Shown piece after piece: positions 3,850 to 19,374 of a stretch of DNA of 64,000 nt (positions are counted from its first letter, which is position 1; every line of letters begins with the position of its first letter). The translations under genes and the position numbers were made by a program. Origin of the DNA: an uncultured Gammaproteobacteria bacterium (GTDB taxonomy: Bacteria; Patescibacteriota; Patescibacteriia; VMEV01; CAZAJQ01); NCBI GenBank assembly GCA_964485795.1, contig CAZAJQ010000003.1, forward strand, positions 68,940 through 132,939. Reading direction: 5' to 3'. The notes under the pieces were generated by a model. It saw only the letters and a program-made list of their open reading frames with translations, had not been told where the DNA came from and made no database searches.

Positions 3850-4033
3850 TTTTTTTTGCAAATATTTTATTTTTTTGCTAAACTTTTGGAATTCGGAAAG
3901 TGGGCATGCTCTCTTGATTCGAGAGGTGCATGAAGCCATCATCCCAACGTAGGAGTAAGGATGAACATACAACGCAAAAATGATCGAGAGAGAGAAAGCG
4001 TGGTGTATTCATTTTTACTCTTAATTTTTTTCT

Positions 4034-10261: not shown

Positions 10262-10309
10262 GGATGGATGGTAAGGATGAATCTATGTGTTCATCCTTAC
10301 CATCCATCC
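10262..10309. repeat. Perfect 20-bp-arm inverted repeat (hairpin): ggatggatggtaaggatgaa / 8-nt loop / ttcatccttaccatccatcc
   Basis: Read directly from the sequence. It lies in the convergent intergenic region between fxsA (+) and folD (-). Confidence 0.9.
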
Positions 10310-10350
10310 ATGACGTGTGAGTGGCCGTTGGCACATCGTATTCGGTAGCG

Positions 10351-10385
10351 GGGTAGGGATGAACCTATGTGTTCATCCCTACCCC
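10351..10385. repeat. Second perfect inverted repeat: gggtagggatgaac / ctatgtg / gttcatccctaccc. It shares the GGATGAA...TTCATCC core with the first.
   Basis: Read directly. The stem core matches the first hairpin (..aggatgaa [loop ..tatgtg] ttcatcc..), which suggests the two are related copies. Confidence 0.9.
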
Positions 10386-10447
10386 CATGACACGGGGTGC
10401 CCATGACACGGGGTGCCCATGACACGGGGTGCCCATGACACGGTGCC
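10385..10447. repeat. Tandem direct repeat, 16-bp unit ccatgacacggggtgc, about 3.9 copies
   Basis: ccatgacacggggtgc occurs 3 times, followed by a degenerate fourth copy (ccatgacacggtgcc). It is immediately 3' of the second hairpin and about 15 bp before the folD stop. Confidence 0.9.
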
Positions 10448-10460
10448 CCTCTGATACGGG

Positions 10461-11342
10461 CTACATTTCTCCGGTGGCATTGATTGCTCGTGAAACTCGT
10501 CTCTGAAGTGCGAGCGTCACGGTGTTCGCAAGCAACATGGCCACGGTGACCGGCCCCACGCCGCCCGGAACCGGTGAAATCCATGAAGCGATTTTCTCGA
10601 CGTTTGCAAAATCAACGTCACCTTCGATGCCATGTTCGGTTTTTGTGGTGCCGACATCGATCACGATGGCGTTTTGTTTCACCATTTCCGCGGTGATGAA
10701 ACTTGGCTTACCCACCGCCACGATCAACACGTCCGATCGCAAGGTTTTATTTTTTATATCGGAATCGTTTGCCCCGCACCATTCGGCGGTCATACGCATT
10801 TTTTGAAATTGATGCATGAGCGGTTTCGCGAATATCTCGCTGTTTGACACGATCGCCGCATGTTTGTCGGTAAGCGGTTCGGCGGTGAAATCGAGCATTT
10901 TCACGATGGCCGAAGTGAGTACCGGCGGTATATCAGAACGATTTTCCAAAAACGCGGAAAGATTTTTTTTGTGAAACCCGTCCACGTCTTTTTCGGGATC
11001 CAATGCGTCGATGATACGGTCGGTGTCAAGATGCTTGGGCAGGGGAAGCTGAACGATGATGCCCGCGATATCGGGATCGCGGTTGAGAAACTTGACGGCC
11101 GCCATTATCTCGTCCGGAGTGCTTTTTTCTGTGCAGAGGTAGGTATGAAAATCGATGCCGATTTTTTTTGCGGCTTTTTCTTTGAGAGAGACGTAGAGTT
11201 TGGAAGCCGCGTCATCACCCACCAGAATGGCCGCAAGCCCGGGATGCAGGTCGTATCGTGCGATGCATTCGCGGGTTTGTTTTTCAATATCCGCGGCGAT
11301 TTTTTTGCCGTCTATGAGCGAGGCTCGGTGGAATTTTGGCAT
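10461..11342 (-). CDS. folD: Bifunctional methylenetetrahydrofolate dehydrogenase / methenyl-THF cyclohydrolase
   Basis: FolD signature along the whole length: ASKLYVSLKEKAAKKIGI, VQLPLP, and an NAD(P)-binding Rossmann segment (VAVGKPSFI...PVPGGVGPVTVAMLLANTV). Confidence 0.9.
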   Translation of the reverse strand: MPKFHRASLIDGKKIAADIEKQTRECIARYDLHPGLAAILVGDDAASKLYVSLKEKAAKKIGIDFHTYLCTEKSTPDEIMAAVKFLNRDPDIAGIIVQLPLPKHLDTDRIIDALDPEKDVDGFHKKNLSAFLENRSDIPPVLTSAIVKMLDFTAEPLTDKHAAIVSNSEIFAKPLMHQFQKMRMTAEWCGANDSDIKNKTLRSDVLIVAVGKPSFITAEMVKQNAIVIDVGTTKTEHGIEGDVDFANVEKIASWISPVPGGVGPVTVAMLLANTVTLALQRRVSRAINATGEM

Positions 11343-12210: not shown

Positions 12211-13500
12211 TTATGCCAGCTCTGGATACAGCGGATAGCGAGCCGTTAATTCTTTGACGGCTCTACGGATATCCTCTTTTACGGTTTCATCATCGCGATA
12301 TTCGATGGTCTTTGCGATGAGCTTTGCCACCTGCGTGCAGTCGTTTTCGTTGAATCCTCGAGTCGTGATGGCCGGAGTCCCGAGTCGTATGCCGGAGGGA
12401 TCCATGGGGTTCCGAGTATCATCGGGAATCATGTTTTTATTGCAGGTGATCATCACCGAGTCGAGCAGCTCCTGCGCCTGTTTGCCGCTGACGCCCTTTG
12501 GCGTGACATCGATAAGCATGAGGTGATTGTCCGTACCGCCGAAGCAGAGTTTGAAGCCGTCGCTGGCGAGTTGCAGTGACATGGCCTTGGCGTTTATTCT
12601 TATCTGCTTGGCATACGTTTTGAATTCCGGTTGCAAAGCTTCTTTGAAAGCCACGGCTTTTGCCGCGATATTGTTTTCATGAGGTCCGCCTTGCAGTCCC
12701 GGGAACACCGCCTTGTCTATGGCTTTGGCGTGCAGGGCTTTGCACATGATCATGCCCCCGCGCGGACCGCGAAGCGTTTTGTGCGTCGTCGTGGAAACCA
12801 CGTCAAAAAGTGGAACCGGATTATTCATCTCACCCGCGGCGATCAGACCCGCGATATGAGCGATATCGGCCATGGTGAGCGCGGATATCTCGTCGGCGAT
12901 CGCTTTGATATTTGCATAATCGATTTCCCGCGAATAGGCGGAGTATCCCACGAGGATCAGCTTTGGTTTGTGTTCCAAGGCCATCGAGCGAAGATGATCA
13001 TAATCGATGCTTCCGTCGGATGACGTTTTATACCGCACGAAATTATAAATCTTCGCCATGAAGGTGACCGGATGGCCATGGGTGAGATGTCCGCCGTGTG
13101 AAAGATCCATGCCGAGCACGGTATCGCCGGGATCGAGCAATGCGGAGTAAACGGCCATATTCGCTGGTGCGCCGGAAAGCGGCTGGACATTGACATGTTC
13201 GGCTCCGAAAAGCTGCCTAGCGCGGTCGATGGCGAGCTGTTCGATCTCGTCGATATATTGGTTACCGCCGTAATACCGCTTGCCGACATAACCTTCGGAG
13301 TATTTGTTGGTCAAAACGCTGCCCAAGGCTTCGAGTACGGCCTTTGAAACGAAGTTTTCGGAAGGGATGAGCTCAATGCCTTCACGCTGGCGCGTCAATT
13401 CTCGTCGTATGGAAGCGTAGATATCCGGGTCAAAGGTTTGAAGTGATGACATAAGAGGGGGACGCAGGAGTTCGTAAGCTGTCAATTCATAGGCCATCAA
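12211..13500 (-). CDS. glyA: Serine hydroxymethyltransferase
   Basis: IELIPSENFVSKAVLEALGSVLTNKYSEGY and the PLP-site TTTHKTLRGPRGG. The true start is probably the internal Met (MSSLQTFDPDIY), around 13452. Confidence 0.92.
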   Translation of the reverse strand: MMAYELTAYELLRPPLMSSLQTFDPDIYASIRRELTRQREGIELIPSENFVSKAVLEALGSVLTNKYSEGYVGKRYYGGNQYIDEIEQLAIDRARQLFGAEHVNVQPLSGAPANMAVYSALLDPGDTVLGMDLSHGGHLTHGHPVTFMAKIYNFVRYKTSSDGSIDYDHLRSMALEHKPKLILVGYSAYSREIDYANIKAIADEISALTMADIAHIAGLIAAGEMNNPVPLFDVVSTTTHKTLRGPRGGMIMCKALHAKAIDKAVFPGLQGGPHENNIAAKAVAFKEALQPEFKTYAKQIRINAKAMSLQLASDGFKLCFGGTDNHLMLIDVTPKGVSGKQAQELLDSVMITCNKNMIPDDTRNPMDPSGIRLGTPAITTRGFNENDCTQVAKLIAKTIEYRDDETVKEDIRRAVKELTARYPLYPELA

Positions 13501-13657
13501 GTATCCCTTATCCTTTGCTGCGTGAAAGAATGTTGGCCTGCGGTTTGCTGCTTACGGTTTCCATTGACTTTTATTGTATTTCCAGTATATTTATCAGTTA
13601 TTGCTTGCGTGAAGATTTCTTAAAATTGTATGTTTTTTTCAAAGAAAGGACAAGAGC

Positions 13658-14203
13658 ATGTATCTGGCATTGATAATATTGTTCGGTATCGTTCTTATGC
13701 AAAGAAGCGAAGACTTTACCGTAAGCTTTCTGATATTTTTTTCGGTCGCTGCTATGGTTGTTTGGGTGCGAATGCGGGCTCATGCGATTCGAAGTTTGCA
13801 GGTTTTTGACCGCAAGATGACCCTGTGCGGAGGGTGTGAGAAATGCAAAAAGTTTGAAGCGGAATATAAACGAGAGGTTCATGCTTTTGGCGAGCAAGGG
13901 GTAGAGGATATTGAGTCTATCGAGACATGGATTCTGAAAGTCATAGAAAAGATGCCTTCATGTCTCACCGGTGTTCCGCTTTTTTTTACTTTTTTGATTT
14001 CCGGTGAGGTATGTTCCGGGTTTGAATTGACGTTTTGCTGTAAAAGAAGGGATCAAAAAAAGGTCATCTGTCTCGCCTTTGAGTTCAAAGGGGATTTTCA
14101 AATGGATCCCTACTATTTGAAAAAAAACTATTTCGGACACATCGATGATGCTCGGTGGTTTTATCGGGAAATTGTTTTTTACGAATCAAAAGGAAAGGAA
14201 TGA
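13658..14203 (+). CDS. Hypothetical membrane protein with a CxxC...CxxC segment
   Basis: Two N-terminal TM helices, a CGGCEKCKKF motif, and no identifiable family. Its presence as a real gene is uncertain. Confidence 0.3.
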   Translation: MYLALIILFGIVLMQRSEDFTVSFLIFFSVAAMVVWVRMRAHAIRSLQVFDRKMTLCGGCEKCKKFEAEYKREVHAFGEQGVEDIESIETWILKVIEKMPSCLTGVPLFFTFLISGEVCSGFELTFCCKRRDQKKVICLAFEFKGDFQMDPYYLKKNYFGHIDDARWFYREIVFYESKGKE

Positions 14204-14206
14204 AAA

Positions 14207-14563
14207 ATGAAAAGAATCGCGATACTTGTTCTCGTGCTCTTTGTCGGGGGATGCCGGATCAATATGCATAGCGAGGTCACGGCACAGACTGATCGCCATT
14301 CAATATCATTCAGCAGTATTGTTACCAATTTTTCGGCCGTGGAATCGGTAACGGTGAAGTTTTGGAAAGGCGTGCTGGATCATGATATCCGAGCTTTTGA
14401 TAACGATGGGGAGGAGCTGGATTTTGAAAAAAATGGCGACGGGTATGTTCTGAACGTAACCGGAAAACCAAAACCGTGTACCATCAGAATTCGAGAAAAG
14501 GTGGCCGGTAGGTGGTACAAAAGTCTCTATGAGATTGGGGACAAATGCGTCAGAAAGGAGTAG
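14207..14563 (+). CDS. Putative lipoprotein (118 aa)
   Basis: Signal peptide with a lipobox (MKRIAILVLVLFVGGC). The mature part is hydrophilic. No known domain. Confidence 0.4.
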   Translation: MKRIAILVLVLFVGGCRINMHSEVTAQTDRHSISFSSIVTNFSAVESVTVKFWKGVLDHDIRAFDNDGEELDFEKNGDGYVLNVTGKPKPCTIRIREKVAGRWYKSLYEIGDKCVRKE

Positions 14564-14585
14564 GAGAGATTGAAAAAAATCTCAA

Positions 14586-14620
14586 ACCGTAGGTGTTCTT
14601 GCCTGCGGTTTTTTTTATTT
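14586..14620 (+). terminator. Rho-independent terminator candidate
   Basis: aaccgtaggtgttcttgcctgcggtttttttt: an imperfect 8-bp stem followed by a T8 run, 23 bp after the lipoprotein stop. Confidence 0.4.
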
Positions 14621-15216
14621 TTTTATCCACGACAATCGTTTTTTTTTACAGCAACAGTCTAGTAAAGTTTCGATCGATGCAATACGCGATGGAGGGGATA
14701 ATTCATATATGGTATACGTATGATTTTTATACAGCTATTTTAGCGAATTTTATAAAGTTTATGATCATTCATCGGGGGAGTGAACGCATTGAGTCCATCA
14801 TTATACTTTTTCTCAAACGTATGAGGTGGGAGGCCTTTTATGGCCTGCAACTGTCAAAATTTTTATGATGAGGTGTTTGCCTCATCATCAAATCCATCGG
14901 ACGGTACGATTCTGAACGCAGAACGAAATCATTGTTGCTGTGGAGGCAAAGCATCTTTTAAGGACGAATTGCTGCTTTTAGGCTTTGCTATTGTCTTGAC
15001 GCTGGGAATTTCCTTCATCATTTTTTGTTTCTATCATTTCTTGAAGTTATTGAAAACATTGTTATTTTTTTCCTAAAAATAAAAAAATATTTTCAATATT
15101 CGCAGGATCTCGCTACTCGAGATCCTCACTTTCCTCCCTCCAAAGCGATTTGGGAGGAGAAAAGTGGGTGCTAAAAAAGAAACGTAGAAACGGTTTTTTT
15201 CGAAAGGAAAAAGAAA

Positions 15217-16278
15217 ATGAAAAAGTTGTTTGTTGTTCTTTTCATTATTTTTGTTGGGGGATTGATGATGGGATGCGTATCTGGGAAAGATACTATAATG
15301 AGAGAAGGCCATCAGTATCCTTATCCTCAGCTCAGGATCTTTTATGCGGCTTCAAATGATGAAAGGGAGGCAATGAGGTTTCAAATGGAATATGCTCTCA
15401 CGTACATTCCTGAGAAGCTTCGCAAAGTGAAGAGTATTTATTATTGCGATCTATGTGACGATTGTTGGAAAGATACCAACATCGCCAAACAAGAAAATTT
15501 TAAGGTAAAGTTTGAAGCCAGAAATTTCAGAGATTCAAATGAAATTCATGTGAATTTTTTTAATGCACGATATCTTCGTGATCCATTTGCTCTCGGAATA
15601 ATTCATCTCATGATTCATGAATTTGGGCATTCTCATGATGCCTATGTCAATAAATGGCCTCATGAACTGCGAGAAAGGCTTGTCGCCCTATATAGGGAAG
15701 CAAAATCTAAAGGGCGTGAGCATGCTTATATGATAAGTACTCTTGAAGAGTACTGGTCATACACCTTTGCCGACGTATTGATGGGGTTTACTGATACATC
15801 GGAAAAAATTATGCTGGTCAAGGATTATTGCAAATATTATCTTGGTCGAAATTTCGATATTGTTGAATATCGAAAGCGCATGGAATGTGAACGAGAAGTA
15901 TTAGAAAAAAAGTATACTAAATATCTTTCAAGTCGCCTTATATGTGGCGGAAAGCGTTTTATGATTATCGACCTACTTGGAGAGCAAAGAAGTTATTTTC
16001 TTGCCAAAAATGAGAGAACACATAATTTCGTTATGAGCCGGTGGATGTCAGTAGGAGATGACGAAACTATGTCTAAGATGAGTGAGAATGATAAAGTGCG
16101 CATTCTCATGAAATCCTGCGGGTTTAATTATATCAATTTTTATGTTGAAAAAGGGGATACCATCCTCGCAGTAAAGATCCATGATACATGGAGATACTGT
16201 CGAATCCCAAGTGTTCAGGAAATTATCAGGGTTCTTTGGAAAATAAGTTATGATCTCGACCATTATAGAACCGGATAA
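15217..16278 (+). CDS. Putative zinc-metallopeptidase lipoprotein (HEXXH)
   Basis: Signal peptide with a lipobox-like MKKLFVVLFIIFVGGLMMGC and an HEXXH motif (IHLMIHEFGHSHD). It is preceded by three short hairpins at 15100-15200. Confidence 0.45.
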   Translation: MKKLFVVLFIIFVGGLMMGCVSGKDTIMREGHQYPYPQLRIFYAASNDEREAMRFQMEYALTYIPEKLRKVKSIYYCDLCDDCWKDTNIAKQENFKVKFEARNFRDSNEIHVNFFNARYLRDPFALGIIHLMIHEFGHSHDAYVNKWPHELRERLVALYREAKSKGREHAYMISTLEEYWSYTFADVLMGFTDTSEKIMLVKDYCKYYLGRNFDIVEYRKRMECEREVLEKKYTKYLSSRLICGGKRFMIIDLLGEQRSYFLAKNERTHNFVMSRWMSVGDDETMSKMSENDKVRILMKSCGFNYINFYVEKGDTILAVKIHDTWRYCRIPSVQEIIRVLWKISYDLDHYRTG

Positions 16279-16305
16279 AATTCTTTTTTATAGATCTCAT
16301 CATTC

Positions 16306-16343
16306 AGCTCGCAGCAAAAAAGTTGCGAGCTGATTTTTTTTAT
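16306..16343 (+). terminator. Rho-independent terminator
   Basis: cagctcgca-gcaaaaaag-ttgcgagctg followed by attttttttat, 28 bp after the stop of the 15217..16278 gene. Confidence 0.5.
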
Positions 16344-16391
16344 ATCCGCTTCACCATATACGTCCCCGAAAGCCTATACCCGAGCTTTTTA
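16320..16391. repeat. 72-bp direct repeat, copy 1 (71/72 identical to 17681..17752)
   Basis: aagttgcgagctgattttttttatatccGcttcaccatatacgtccccgaaagcctatacccgagcttttta. Copy 2 is the 3' end of elp3 (it encodes ...YKKLGYRLSGTYMVKGI on the minus strand). Copy 1 is therefore a non-functional duplicate of a gene end. Confidence 0.9.
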
Positions 16392-16427
16392 CTGTATTCC
16401 AGATTTTCATACCAAGGTATAATATTA

Positions 16428-16455
16428 TTGACTTTTTTTTCTACTATGGTACAAT
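16428..16455 (+). promoter_or_regulatory. Sigma70-like promoter candidate for the AAA ATPase gene
   Basis: -35 TTGACT (16428-16433), 16-nt spacer, -10 TACAAT (16450-16455). The ATG is at 16495. Confidence 0.4.
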
Positions 16456-16494
16456 ATCAGTGGTAGTAAAATACTAAAAGTATAAGAGCATTTT

Positions 16495-17673
16495 ATGATA
16501 AAAGATCGATATCTATCGCCATTTATCACCTCCGATTTGCAAAAAAAGATGGTTTTTCTTGGAGGACCTCGTCAGGTTGGCAAAACCAGCCTGGCTCTTT
16601 TTATCGGCAGAAATCACTACAAGAATTCAACATATTACAATTGGGACAACCGAGACGATAAAAAGGCGATGCTTCATGACACATTTCCATCCGAGACAGA
16701 TCTGATAATTTTTGATGAAATTCATAAGTATCGACCCTGGAAAAATTTCATCAAAGGTAAATACGATAAGCATAAGGATGACTTTCATATGCTCGTGACG
16801 GGTAGCGCACGCCTTGATCTCTATCGAAAAGGCGGGGATTCGCTGATGGGACGTTATCATTATTATCGTCTTCATCCTTTTACCCTTGCAGAGGTTCTTA
16901 AAGTATTACCGAAATCAAATGTTGGCGGCGAACTTTTCTTTGTTCCCGAATCAGCGAATGCAAAAACTTTTTTCAATCGCCTCTTTCAATTCGGAGGCTT
17001 TCCCGAACCATATCTCGAGCAAGATATCAAAACTTTGCGAAGATTTCACAATGAACGATTTGATCGACTTTTTAAAGAGGATATCCGAGAGATAGAAAGC
17101 ATTCGATACCTTTCTCAACTTCAAATATTTGCTGAGTTGCTTCCTACGAAAGTCGGATCGCTTCTTTCTTTGAACTCATTTCGCGAAGATTTGCAAGTGA
17201 CGCATAAAACCATCTCTCATTGGGCAGATGTTCTCGAAAATTTCTACTATCATTTTCGGATCTACCCCTTTGCATCATCGTTGATCAAGTCTCTTAGAAA
17301 GGAACCAAAACTGTATTTGTGGGACTGGTCGCAGATTCATGATGAATCGATCAGATTGGAAAACATGGTCGCGAGTCATCTTTTGAAATTCGTGCATTTC
17401 ATTCAAGATACGCAAGGATACAAAATAGCACTCCATTTTCTCCGAGACGTCGAGCAAAGAGAGGTGGATTTTCTTGTGACCATCAATAATTCGCCTTGGT
17501 TTGCCGTTGAAGTAAAAAAATTTGACACATCGCCATCCTCTACACTTCTGTATTTCCAAAAAAAGCTTCGCATCCCCTTCATATATCAAGTGATAATGAA
17601 TCACGGTATCGATCAACGACAGACTGGAATCCGAGTCATAAGCGCAAGTAAATTTTTAACGTCATTGATATAA
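16495..17673 (+). CDS. AAA+ superfamily ATPase, COG1373 family (ATPase domain plus C-terminal DUF4143-like domain)
   Basis: Walker A (FLGGPRQVGKTSLAL) and Walker B (LIIFDEIH). MLVTGSARLDL...GRYHYYRLHPFTLAE is characteristic of COG1373. The C-terminal roughly 150 aa is DUF4143-like. Confidence 0.7.
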   Translation: MIKDRYLSPFITSDLQKKMVFLGGPRQVGKTSLALFIGRNHYKNSTYYNWDNRDDKKAMLHDTFPSETDLIIFDEIHKYRPWKNFIKGKYDKHKDDFHMLVTGSARLDLYRKGGDSLMGRYHYYRLHPFTLAEVLKVLPKSNVGGELFFVPESANAKTFFNRLFQFGGFPEPYLEQDIKTLRRFHNERFDRLFKEDIREIESIRYLSQLQIFAELLPTKVGSLLSLNSFREDLQVTHKTISHWADVLENFYYHFRIYPFASSLIKSLRKEPKLYLWDWSQIHDESIRLENMVASHLLKFVHFIQDTQGYKIALHFLRDVEQREVDFLVTINNSPWFAVEVKKFDTSPSSTLLYFQKKLRIPFIYQVIMNHGIDQRQTGIRVISASKFLTSLI

Positions 17674-17680
17674 TCTCATA

Positions 17681-17752
17681 AAGTTGCGAGCTGATTTTTT
17701 TTATATCCCCTTCACCATATACGTCCCCGAAAGCCTATACCCGAGCTTTTTA
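17681..17752. repeat. 72-bp direct repeat, copy 2 (the authentic 3' end of elp3)
   Basis: See copy 1. Together the two copies bracket a 1.29-kb segment containing only the AAA ATPase gene and its promoter. Confidence 0.9.
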
Positions 17753-19374
17753 TAATACTCCCTCGACCCGATGCCCGCGATGACGGCTATTTTTTCATAG
17801 CCTTTTTTTTGCGCGATTGCCTCGGCTCGCCGCAGAAGTTTTTTTCCCAGTCCTCGATGCTGAGACGAATCGCTGGTCGAATCTTTTTCCCTGATGCTCT
17901 GAACCTTTCCATAGGTATGCAATTCTCGTATCAATGCGCAATGTTTCAGATCGGATATGAAAATATCTTCTTGTCTCGGTAGCCGAAGGCGTAAAAAAGA
18001 ATACAACGTCGTTTGAAATTCATTTTCAAAAGAAATAAAAAATTCCTTCCCTCCCGAAGCTTCAAATTCAAACTCATGCATGATAATCTTCTCTCTCTGA
18101 GTACTGTGAACTGAGTACTGAGTATTTGCCGCCTCCTTTCCCACTTGCCTGCACCTCATGCATCGACACTTTTCACCGCGTTTCTCCAATTCTTTTTGAA
18201 GGTATTCCCGAAGATTGAGGATTTTGTTTCCGGCAAGAACGGTTTTTGACGGGATATCGCGAAAAACCCGATCGATTCGTACATACTGAGGTACGATTTT
18301 TTTTATTTCGAGCAAGGTTTCAAAAAGCTCTTCATCCGTATAGGGTCGATAATTTCCCTGTTTCCACCAGCGATACAAAAGCGCGTCCTTGACCACCACG
18401 CAAGGATATATTTTGAGCTGATCGGGCTTGAAGTCGGCATCGGAAAATATTTTTTTGAATCCGAGAATATCCTTTTCCGGCGTGGATCCGGGCAAACCCG
18501 GCATCATGTGGTACTGGATTTTGAATCCGGCGTTTCGAAGCAGTTTTGTGGCTCTTGCGGCGTCCGATCCGTCTTCTTCCCTTCGAGTCAGCTTTTGCAC
18601 TGCATCGTCCACGGATTGCACGCCGAGTTCGATCCTCGTGCATCCGAGATCACGCAGGCGTTTCACTTCGGTTTCCGTGATGTGATCCGGCCTCGTTTCG
18701 ATGGTCATGCCGATGATGCGGTTTTTCGCGTATTCGTTTTTTTTCTGCGCGGCTATCAGATTTTTTTTACCCTTATCGATTTTATGAAGCTTGGCAGCGT
18801 TTTCATCCGTCATTTCAAAACGCGAATTTGCTGCGTCAAAGCATCGCTTGATGAACCATGTCTGGTACTGCTTGGGGTAAAACGACCATGTTCCGCCGGT
18901 GATATGGAGCTCGATTTTTTCGGTGTTGTGTCCGTTGAGATGCAAAGCCGTGATTCGTGACTTCACCTGACGATAGGGATCCCAAGCATTGCGCACGGCG
19001 CGCATCACGGCCGGTTGATCCGGCAAATAGCTTTTCGGCATGTTTTTCGCCGTAGGGCAGTACACGCATTTTCCGGGGCAGGGAAACGGTTTCGTGAGAA
19101 GCGCCACCACGGCCACTCCGGAAGAAGTGCGTATGGCGCGTTTTTGGAGCATGTTTTCGAGTCTTTGATCGGCGGCAATCACGGTATCATGCACCATTTT
19201 TCGATACGTTCGCAAAATATCGGATTTTGCGGGAGAAGGAAATTTATATTTACCGGCGCTTTTGCGTATAATGATTTCAGCGTCGCCGGAATTTTTCGGA
19301 TATTGCGCGACAAGATCTCTGACGATGATGTCAAGCACTTTCTGCGGATGGGTTTTTTTGTAGGTCAGAGGCAT
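17701..19374 (-). CDS. elp3: Elongator Elp3-like protein (radical-SAM plus GNAT acetyltransferase), putative tRNA U34 carboxymethyluridine synthase
   Basis: 557 aa. Radical-SAM cysteine cluster (CPGKCVYCP), a central Elp3-type rSAM domain (GHNTEKIELHITGGTWSFYP...TRIELGVQSVDD) and a C-terminal GNAT motif (QHRGLGKKLLRRAEAIAQKKGYEKIAVIAGIGSREYYKKLGY). Confidence 0.85.
   Translation of the reverse strand: MPLTYKKTHPQKVLDIIVRDLVAQYPKNSGDAEIIIRKSAGKYKFPSPAKSDILRTYRKMVHDTVIAADQRLENMLQKRAIRTSSGVAVVALLTKPFPCPGKCVYCPTAKNMPKSYLPDQPAVMRAVRNAWDPYRQVKSRITALHLNGHNTEKIELHITGGTWSFYPKQYQTWFIKRCFDAANSRFEMTDENAAKLHKIDKGKKNLIAAQKKNEYAKNRIIGMTIETRPDHITETEVKRLRDLGCTRIELGVQSVDDAVQKLTRREEDGSDAARATKLLRNAGFKIQYHMMPGLPGSTPEKDILGFKKIFSDADFKPDQLKIYPCVVVKDALLYRWWKQGNYRPYTDEELFETLLEIKKIVPQYVRIDRVFRDIPSKTVLAGNKILNLREYLQKELEKRGEKCRCMRCRQVGKEAANTQYSVHSTQREKIIMHEFEFEASGGKEFFISFENEFQTTLYSFLRLRLPRQEDIFISDLKHCALIRELHTYGKVQSIREKDSTSDSSQHRGLGKKLLRRAEAIAQKKGYEKIAVIAGIGSREYYKKLGYRLSGTYMVKGI

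Follow-up and report, generated by a model that had tools for sequence, protein, structure and literature searches.

In the window, i.e. the whole 64-kb stretch of DNA that was analysed, a single gene for an AAA+ ATPase lies between two copies of a direct repeat (DR1 and DR2), one of which forms the end of the neighbouring gene elp3. The elp3 gene (17701–19374, minus strand) is intact and was assigned from its open reading frame (ORF), Pfam and NCBIfam to a radical SAM/GNAT tRNA U34 modification enzyme: the protein of 557 amino acids (aa) with the C-terminus ...YKKLGYRLSGTYMVKGI reaches 560 bits against TIGR01211 in NCBIfam (cutoff 350) and shows the Radical_SAM, Radical_SAM_C and GNAT domains in Pfam. 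Convergent to elp3 is a gene for a 353-aa protein (15217–16278, plus strand), and folding places an intrinsic terminator with a 12-bp stem, a 6-nt loop and a T8 tail behind it (16304–16342, plus strand). From this terminator to elp3 the order is DR1 (16319–16391), a cassette of 1,288 bp with a regulatory region and one ORF on the plus strand (16392–17679), and DR2 (17680–17752).

The two repeat copies are identical at 72 of 73 positions, with a G at 16348 against a C at 17709 as the sole mismatch and 43 nt as the longest exact stretch. A sequence-only reading of this DNA had described them as 71 identical positions out of 72 (16320–16391 and 17681–17752); the repeat is confirmed, with one base more. 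Allowing up to three mismatches it occurs exactly twice in the window and not once in 100 shuffles, and DR1/DR2 is the only dispersed direct repeat of at least 24 nt with such a spacing across these 64 kb. DR2 covers the final 17 codons and the stop codon of elp3 (17701–17752) together with 21 nt of downstream spacer and is now the working 3' end of the gene, as had been claimed. DR1, recognised by repeat comparison and translation as the displaced target copy, holds on the minus strand a detached elp3 3' end of 17 codons plus stop with Gly replaced by Arg at the penultimate codon (16340–16391), followed by the spacer and the right arm of the terminator hairpin (16319–16339). The elp3 frame of DR1 would read ...KKLGYRLSGTYMVKRI followed by the stop; no gene body is joined to it, and past DR1 just two more codons (EY) match, possibly by chance, which agrees with its earlier description as a non-functional duplicate.

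The position of the terminator tells the two copies apart. The hairpin (16304–16333) is complete and adjoins DR1, with a folding free energy (dG) of -21.9 kcal/mol and a z-score of -6.35, and its loop contains the left boundary of the duplication (16319). At DR2 the right arm is present alone, the left arm is absent and there is no folding (dG -2.1). A hairpin that is whole at DR1 only is expected if the insertion hit a region where a single elp3 end met the terminator. On its left DR1 has kept its original surroundings, and on its right so has DR2, which is joined to the elp3 body; before the event one elp3 end would have abutted the terminator of the convergent 353-aa gene. As the duplication spans from the hairpin loop to 52 nt inside elp3, both neighbours keep complete ends: elp3 retains its last 17 codons via DR2, and the 353-aa gene retains its terminator via DR1. 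Neither the repeat nor the region contains a tRNA or an Rfam match.

The cassette starts 17 nt ahead of a perfect palindrome, ATACCAAGGTAT, and ends 6 nt past the ATPase stop codon. Its termini show no terminal inverted repeats and only chance-level matches (71–74%) elsewhere, and its 1,288 bp hold one ORF and no recombinase gene, transposase domain or methyltransferase. The regulatory region (16409–16455, plus strand) consists of the palindrome (16409–16420) and the single sigma70-like site of the cassette, TTGACT-16-TACAAT (-35 box at 16428–16433, -10 box at 16450–16455; 10/12, TG-extended), so the earlier statement that only a promoter and one COG1373-type ATPase gene lie between the repeats was correct. 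An imperfect palindrome, TACTATGGTA (16442–16451), overlaps the -10 box. In every homologous cassette two palindromic sites likewise frame or precede the promoter, and their half-sites co-vary by subfamily (TATACC..GGTATA; TTGCTTATAAGCAA; TTGACTAAGGTCAA; upstream regions of L035–L114). The paired palindromes look like a putative autoregulatory operator for the protein's own DNA-binding domain. Downstream of the ATPase gene, the interval 17674–17700 offers no terminator of its own after the insertion, and transcription would run antisense into the elp3 3' end.

The encoded protein of 392 aa (16495–17673, plus strand) was identified from its ORF, Pfam, PADLOC, an alignment and a structure model as an AAA+ ATPase with a C-terminal DUF4143, a PD-(D/E)XK nuclease domain. 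Pfam returned AAA_14 (7.8e-26) and DUF4143 (4.1e-23). The Walker A motif GPRQVGKT (G24 to K30-T) and the Walker B motif IIFDE (D74-E75) are invariant in the homologs, as are the PD-(D/E)XK residues D325, E339 and K341 in 25 sequences (context EVDFLV...AVEVK). The predicted structure has a mean predicted local distance difference test score (pLDDT) of 68.7 and a predicted template modelling score (pTM) of 0.69; the C-terminal domain is modelled as alpha-beta-beta-beta-alpha-beta with pLDDT 83–94. A Foldseek search with the whole model returned AAA+ ATPases only, without a separate match for the nuclease domain, and likened the N-terminal fold to clamp-loader and origin recognition complex (ORC) subunits. 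A sequence search of the PDB gave a marginal AAA match only, PHROGs and NCBIfam gave no match, viral contigs contained no relative, and a plasmid search found distant homologs only (25–41%). The literature lists DUF4143/COG1373 within the PD-(D/E)XK superfamily with function unknown. The protein matches PADLOC PDC-S01 over its full length (PDLC04790, E 3.7e-46, residues 5–378), in line with the earlier remark that such ATPases are mobile or defence-like. PDC-S01 is an ATPase fused to a PD-(D/E)XK domain, ranked as the fourth most common 'defence' in prokaryotes, though unvalidated, in a 2026 survey, and it is described as transferred across domains. The gene product is most likely a nucleoside triphosphate (NTP)-dependent nuclease that represses itself through its own DNA-binding domain at the paired palindromes, and the gene is a candidate anti-phage defence gene.

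The arrangement of elp3, ATPase gene and repeats is also present in the public contig JACQLO010000003.1 of assembly GCA_016204025.1. This contig ends ~232 nt upstream of the 353-aa gene (window ~14985), a point across which the Logan contig L006 is continuous. The window runs on past this end and probably belongs to a second, longer record; for all three proteins (Elp3, the ATPase and the 353-aa protein) two contigs appear in the cluster tables, of up to 134,263 bp. Logan contigs, assembled with k=31, were available from three runs: L003 corresponds to 16362–17752 and L004 to 16362–17739, and L006 ends at 16378. These ends fall exactly at the 43-nt exact repeat, where a de Bruijn graph would branch. 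Because Logan contigs from the three runs contain them, both repeat/cassette junctions exist in independent read sets.

The closest relative of this Elp3 (L115, 66% aa identity) has a single elp3 end and no insert, with folD starting 5 nt after elp3. Its following genes, folD, FxsA, YchF, NUDIX, methyltransferase, S6 and SSB, correspond to window 5.4–11.3 kb; its elp3 end is too diverged for a DNA alignment with that of the window, and the downstream gene differs. In the more distant relatives L007, L009, L010 and L017 glyA is next after elp3. In none of 28 related loci is the ATPase gene adjacent to elp3. The sequence-only reading had asked whether relatives lack the ATPase and have the 353-aa gene at 15217–16278 directly after elp3; the ATPase is absent, and folD or glyA is found there. 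Elp3, the ATPase and the 353-aa protein are each the sole member of their 90% identity cluster, and a scan of a genome collection for close relatives gave at most 52% identity.

An alignment of homologs, 60–66% identical and from many Patescibacteria lineages, retrieved 80 metagenome loci (L numbers). Flanking repeats were counted for the non-redundant ATPase genes whose flanks both reach 300 nt or more (n=50), and same-length segments of the same contigs served as controls (n=264). A significant flanking direct repeat was found at 19 of the 50 homologs and at 7 of the 264 control segments (odds ratio 22, P = 7e-12). The repeats are 19–316 nt long, 81–100% identical and different in sequence at every locus, and the DNA between them, typically 1,276–1,454 bp, amounts to promoter plus ORF. 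At L073, L108 and L114 the duplicated DNA is the 3' end of a co-directional gene lying upstream; at L101 it is a tRNA-Arg from the anticodon stem to the CCA, at L046 the 3' part of a tRNA-Ala that runs convergently, at L042 the initial 17 codons of the gene downstream and at L038, with 316 nt, a gene end with the spacer and the start of the next gene. In each case, as with elp3 and the 353-aa gene, neither neighbour is damaged by the duplication; other repeats cover intergenic DNA. No conserved core was seen at the junctions across the loci. A functional link to elp3 or tRNA modification is not supported: sister cassettes adjoin DegT aminotransferases, tRNA-Arg, tRNA-Ala and other unrelated genes.

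Two natural empty sites were found within the family. L122 and L123 carry the gene order DUF362-DegT-SIS without a cassette, while L073 and L116 have DUF362-DegT-ATPase-SIS; segment 2738–2873 of the empty locus aligns to both repeats of L073/L116, and its upstream flank continues from DR1 and its downstream flank from DR2. The second is L068, where the 62-nt repeat of L063 occurs once and the flanks on either side are collinear. Furthermore, near-identical cassettes (89–97% DNA identity) sit in unrelated flanks, and by blastn their similarity extends from 59–98 nt before the ATG, at the first palindrome, to the stop codon (+0–24 nt). Such pairs are L063/L068 (97% over 1,264 nt), L062/L077 (93% over 1,264 nt), L079/L085 (90% over 1,296 nt), L063/L073 (90% over 1,269 nt) and L051/L056 (89% over 1,236 nt). 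Since L073 comes from a Deltaproteobacterium, the family crosses phyla.

Some further features of single loci were recorded. The related cassettes of L079 (~3850–3905) and L101 (3834–3909), with 82% identity to each other, begin no more than a few nt from a tRNA CCA end; the tRNA of L101 is a tRNA-Arg, the sequence at L079 resembles a different tRNA, and together they hint at a preference for tRNA 3' ends in this subfamily. The L104 contig (2,451 nt), whose cassette has 106-nt repeats, has identical termini of 123 nt (1–123 and 2329–2451) that could reflect a circular form, a tandem form or a second outer repeat; we rejected this overlap as proof of a circle, as the termini differ from the cassette repeats. 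Downstream of the cassette at L037/L038, the 316-nt repeat duplicates the 5' end of a gene (L038 5504–6232) that begins with MRKVIFANGEYYHIYNRGVDKREVF and may resemble IS200/REP-associated Y1 transposase-like proteins.

The segment 16392–17679 is in our view probably a discrete one-gene mobile cassette that entered with a copy of 73 bp of its target, an 'insertion with long target duplication'. That a cassette entered at the elp3 end and duplicated its target had already been proposed from the sequence, and the proposal is strengthened by the anatomy of the locus with its hairpin whole only at DR1, by the related elp3 loci that lack the ATPase, by the enrichment of the footprint across the family, by the two sister empty sites and by the reproducible bounds of the unit. 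We conclude that the whole ATPase family behaves as a small mobile cassette. The cassette would have been inserted between the convergent elp3 and 353-aa genes, copying 73 bp of the target. Primary insertion would take place at two breaks or nicks 19–316 bp apart, with gap filling or an equivalent route of break repair, and the encoded nuclease may be involved because it is the only protein encoded in the unit. Once established, insertions could spread between lineages through DNA uptake and homologous recombination in the flanks, and the two repeats would also permit excision or amplification by recombination.

Several points weigh against this interpretation. Only ~38% of the homologous cassettes carry repeats, and those of L046, L047, L080, L092 and L105 are tRNA-like or multi-copy intergenic sequences and not clean target duplications. 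At some loci, such as L063, 100–240 nt of unrelated DNA lie between repeat and cassette, which speaks against precise transposition, as this would leave none. For the window locus itself an empty site at the DNA level was not found, the nearest Elp3 relative being the one with 66% aa identity. The Logan contigs, although they contain both junctions, at k=31 fit an integrated cassette as well as an empty site accompanied by a free circle; integration is favoured here by the allele-specific mismatch and by assemblies with longer k. Finally, a part of the nuclease in the insertion is pure inference and the activity of the protein a prediction.

A stronger claim would be that the AAA+/PD-(D/E)XK protein is itself the mobility enzyme and the 1.3-kb unit an autonomous one-gene mobile element. 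The protein would then open the target at two points separated by tens to hundreds of bp, and the unit would be joined in with gap filling. We regard this as rather unlikely; if true, it would define a new class of prokaryotic mobile element and would explain the decades-old footprint of long target duplications around nuclease-type defence genes.

The repeats of sister loci carry a record of how established insertions move. At L073, 12 of the 14 differences between the repeat copies are at third codon positions, and 12 codons are changed synonymously versus 2 non-synonymously (P = 8e-5); at L114 it is 10 of 11 differences at third positions (P = 1.3e-4). This bias rules out duplication in situ followed by neutral decay at both loci. 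Instead, each copy must derive from a functional allele of its own, and thus donor and recipient DNA were joined by homologous recombination. L116 and L073 (compared over L073 1542–7895) are 71–89% (~80%) identical up to ~3490 inside DegT, and past this point 100% identical for 4.4 kb through repeat, cassette, second repeat and at least 2.6 kb downstream, in agreement with a recombination tract; that this switch in identity could be an assembly chimera is a further point against the interpretation. In the window the repeat copies show one difference, non-synonymous in the dead copy, which points to a recent event and is uninformative on a two-allele origin.

Among the other explanations, a Campbell-type integration survives best. 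A circular cassette that had captured the 73-bp elp3 end during an earlier excision would have entered by a single homologous crossover, so that the repeats are the two recombinant copies and no fill-in is needed. This accounts for the sharp edges of the repeats and, as donor and recipient alleles, for the mainly synonymous differences between copies; a 73-nt repeat is generally known to suffice for RecA-type recombination, the Logan contigs are compatible with a circle, and the identical 123-nt termini of L104 fit a circular or tandem form. Such a circle, however, cannot reach new sites, yet cassettes of 90–97% identity occupy different targets with different repeats, and a prior illegitimate step would still be required to capture the target DNA. 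The circular junction was not observed, and the L104 termini do not coincide with the repeats of its cassette. We think that this route is unlikely to have produced the locus.

Natural transformation with homology-facilitated illegitimate recombination is less probable still. A donor fragment with an elp3 end and the ATPase gene would have found its anchor by homology within elp3, and illegitimate joining would have linked its other end to a point 52 nt into the resident elp3 end; the ATPase would play no part and the cassette would be no defined element. Synonymous differences between copies, the tract of 100% identity with its breakpoint inside a flanking gene, the extra non-cassette DNA inside some repeat-bounded inserts and the fact that long target duplications have been noted mostly in naturally competent species all suit this explanation. 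Random fragments, on the other hand, would not repeat the same unit ends (at the 3' side exact to the stop codon, at the 5' side within ~15 nt) in independent contexts, and control segments of the same contigs rarely have flanking repeats. The sequence-only reading had named illegitimate recombination as the alternative to a cassette insertion; it has a place here, less as a true rival than as a possible way in which this insertion came about at the molecular level.

A tyrosine or serine recombinase acting in trans, with the repeats as attL and attR attachment sites of a decayed or cis-mobilisable island targeting the elp3 3' end, is very improbable. Integrase islands classically duplicate the 3' end of a gene or tRNA, as is generally known, and L101 duplicates its tRNA-Arg in just this way; but there is no recombinase in any of the inserts (1.28–1.45 kb), the repeats of 19–316 nt share no common core, and the different repeats of closely related cassettes imply that there is no att site borne by the element. 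An assembly artefact, in which a free circular or strain-variable segment of 1.36 kb was mis-threaded into the chromosome at the shared 43-mer, would explain why the k=31 de Bruijn contigs end in the repeat with paths unresolved, but can practically be dismissed, as JACQLO010000003.1 carries the same arrangement, the single mismatch links each repeat copy to its own left flank, 43 nt is well below read length, and the same architecture recurs in many unrelated assemblies.

Since 2000, insertion with long target duplication has been recognised as a route by which restriction-type genes enter genomes without transposase or integrase; Nobusato et al. reportedly described it in that year for restriction-modification (R-M) genes. 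In a later study it was found for R-M genes including the lone Type IV gene mcrA, with repeats of 30 to ~420 bp that are single-copy in empty-site genomes and often overlap the 3' end of a neighbouring gene or a tRNA; no other mobility genes were present, most of the species were naturally competent, and the mechanism is unsolved, double-strand breakage having been proposed (Furuta, Abe & Kobayashi 2010, PMC2853133). These authors asked for repeats above 30 bp, a single-copy collinear empty site, no other mobility genes, an insert below 20 kb and R-M homologs. In the window the 73-nt repeat exceeds 30 bp and the 1,288-bp insert is below 20 kb without mobility genes; single-copy empty sites exist at the sister loci (L073/L116 versus L122/L123, and L063 versus L068), and instead of an R-M homolog the insert encodes an ATPase-nuclease with no methyltransferase. 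Common to both are a nuclease-encoding gene of the defence type, the lack of a transposase or integrase, and long variable repeats. In contrast to the R-M cases, the cargo is one gene for an AAA+/PD-(D/E)XK protein, its carriers are uncultured Patescibacteria and Deltaproteobacteria, the cassette is much smaller (~1.3 kb) with reproducible, stop-codon-exact boundaries, and the footprint is frequent across the cassette family (19/50). With PADLOC PDC-S01 (COG1373) the protein shares the two-domain architecture AAA_14 plus DUF4143 over the full length, and in the literature on DUF4143, COG1373 and PDC-S01 we found no report of a flanking target duplication or a defined mobile unit.

Free-standing homing endonuclease genes have been described between a gene and a duplicated C-terminal fragment of it (PMC6279837). 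The resemblance lies in a nuclease gene situated between a gene and a detached copy of its 3' end, and in the mainly synonymous differences between the copies at sister loci, which would be expected had one of them come from another lineage. Unlike homing genes, however, the cassettes encode a different nuclease family, their duplications include gene 5' ends and intergenic DNA as well, and related cassettes occupy many unrelated targets and not one cognate site. As in integrase islands and cis-mobilisable elements (CIME), the direct repeats restore the 3' end of a target gene, but the cassettes lack a recombinase and a conserved att core, their repeats range from 19 to 316 nt, and cassettes that are 90–97% identical have repeats unrelated in sequence. 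As with the target-site duplication of transposons, target DNA is duplicated directly at both ends of a discrete unit; the duplication is nevertheless variable and far above the usual <15 bp, and neither transposase nor terminal inverted repeats are present. New are the cargo and the hosts, while the kind of rearrangement is known and mechanistically unsolved.

For this genome, the ATPase gene is to be regarded as a recent accessory insertion, with no evidence for a functional tie to elp3. The family offers a simple test case, with one gene of ~1.3 kb, reproducible boundaries, a frequent footprint, natural pairs of empty and occupied sites and catalytic residues that can be mutated, and with a pattern that holds across the family and a 1.3-kb unit of sharp bounds, an old mechanistic question becomes experimentally approachable. 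It could also be that part of the abundance of PDC-S01 in defence surveys reflects selfish mobility and not a benefit for the host.

On its left side the cassette is followed by a low-GC accessory stretch (13501–16303), defined by ORFs, composition and synteny, with plus-strand ORFs that have no match in Pfam, NCBIfam, PADLOC or PHROG and a GC content of 0.33–0.43. Because the relatives lack it, the DNA at 13501–17700, of lower GC and on the opposite strand, is extra DNA between elp3 and glyA, and the ATPase cassette is its elp3-proximal and most recent layer. The glyA gene, adjacent to elp3 in relatives, lies at 12211–13500 on the minus strand. The last gene of the accessory stretch (13.5–16.3 kb, absent from relatives) is the 353-aa ORF, whose product has a lipoprotein-like N-terminus (…GGLMMGC) and a zinc-protease-type HEFGH motif. 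Farther away, the spacer between the FxsA-like gene and folD (window 10270–10463) contains a hairpin-forming repeat of 32 nt twice (10270–10301 and 10352–10383), followed by about four tandem copies of the 16-nt unit CCCATGACACGGGGTG.

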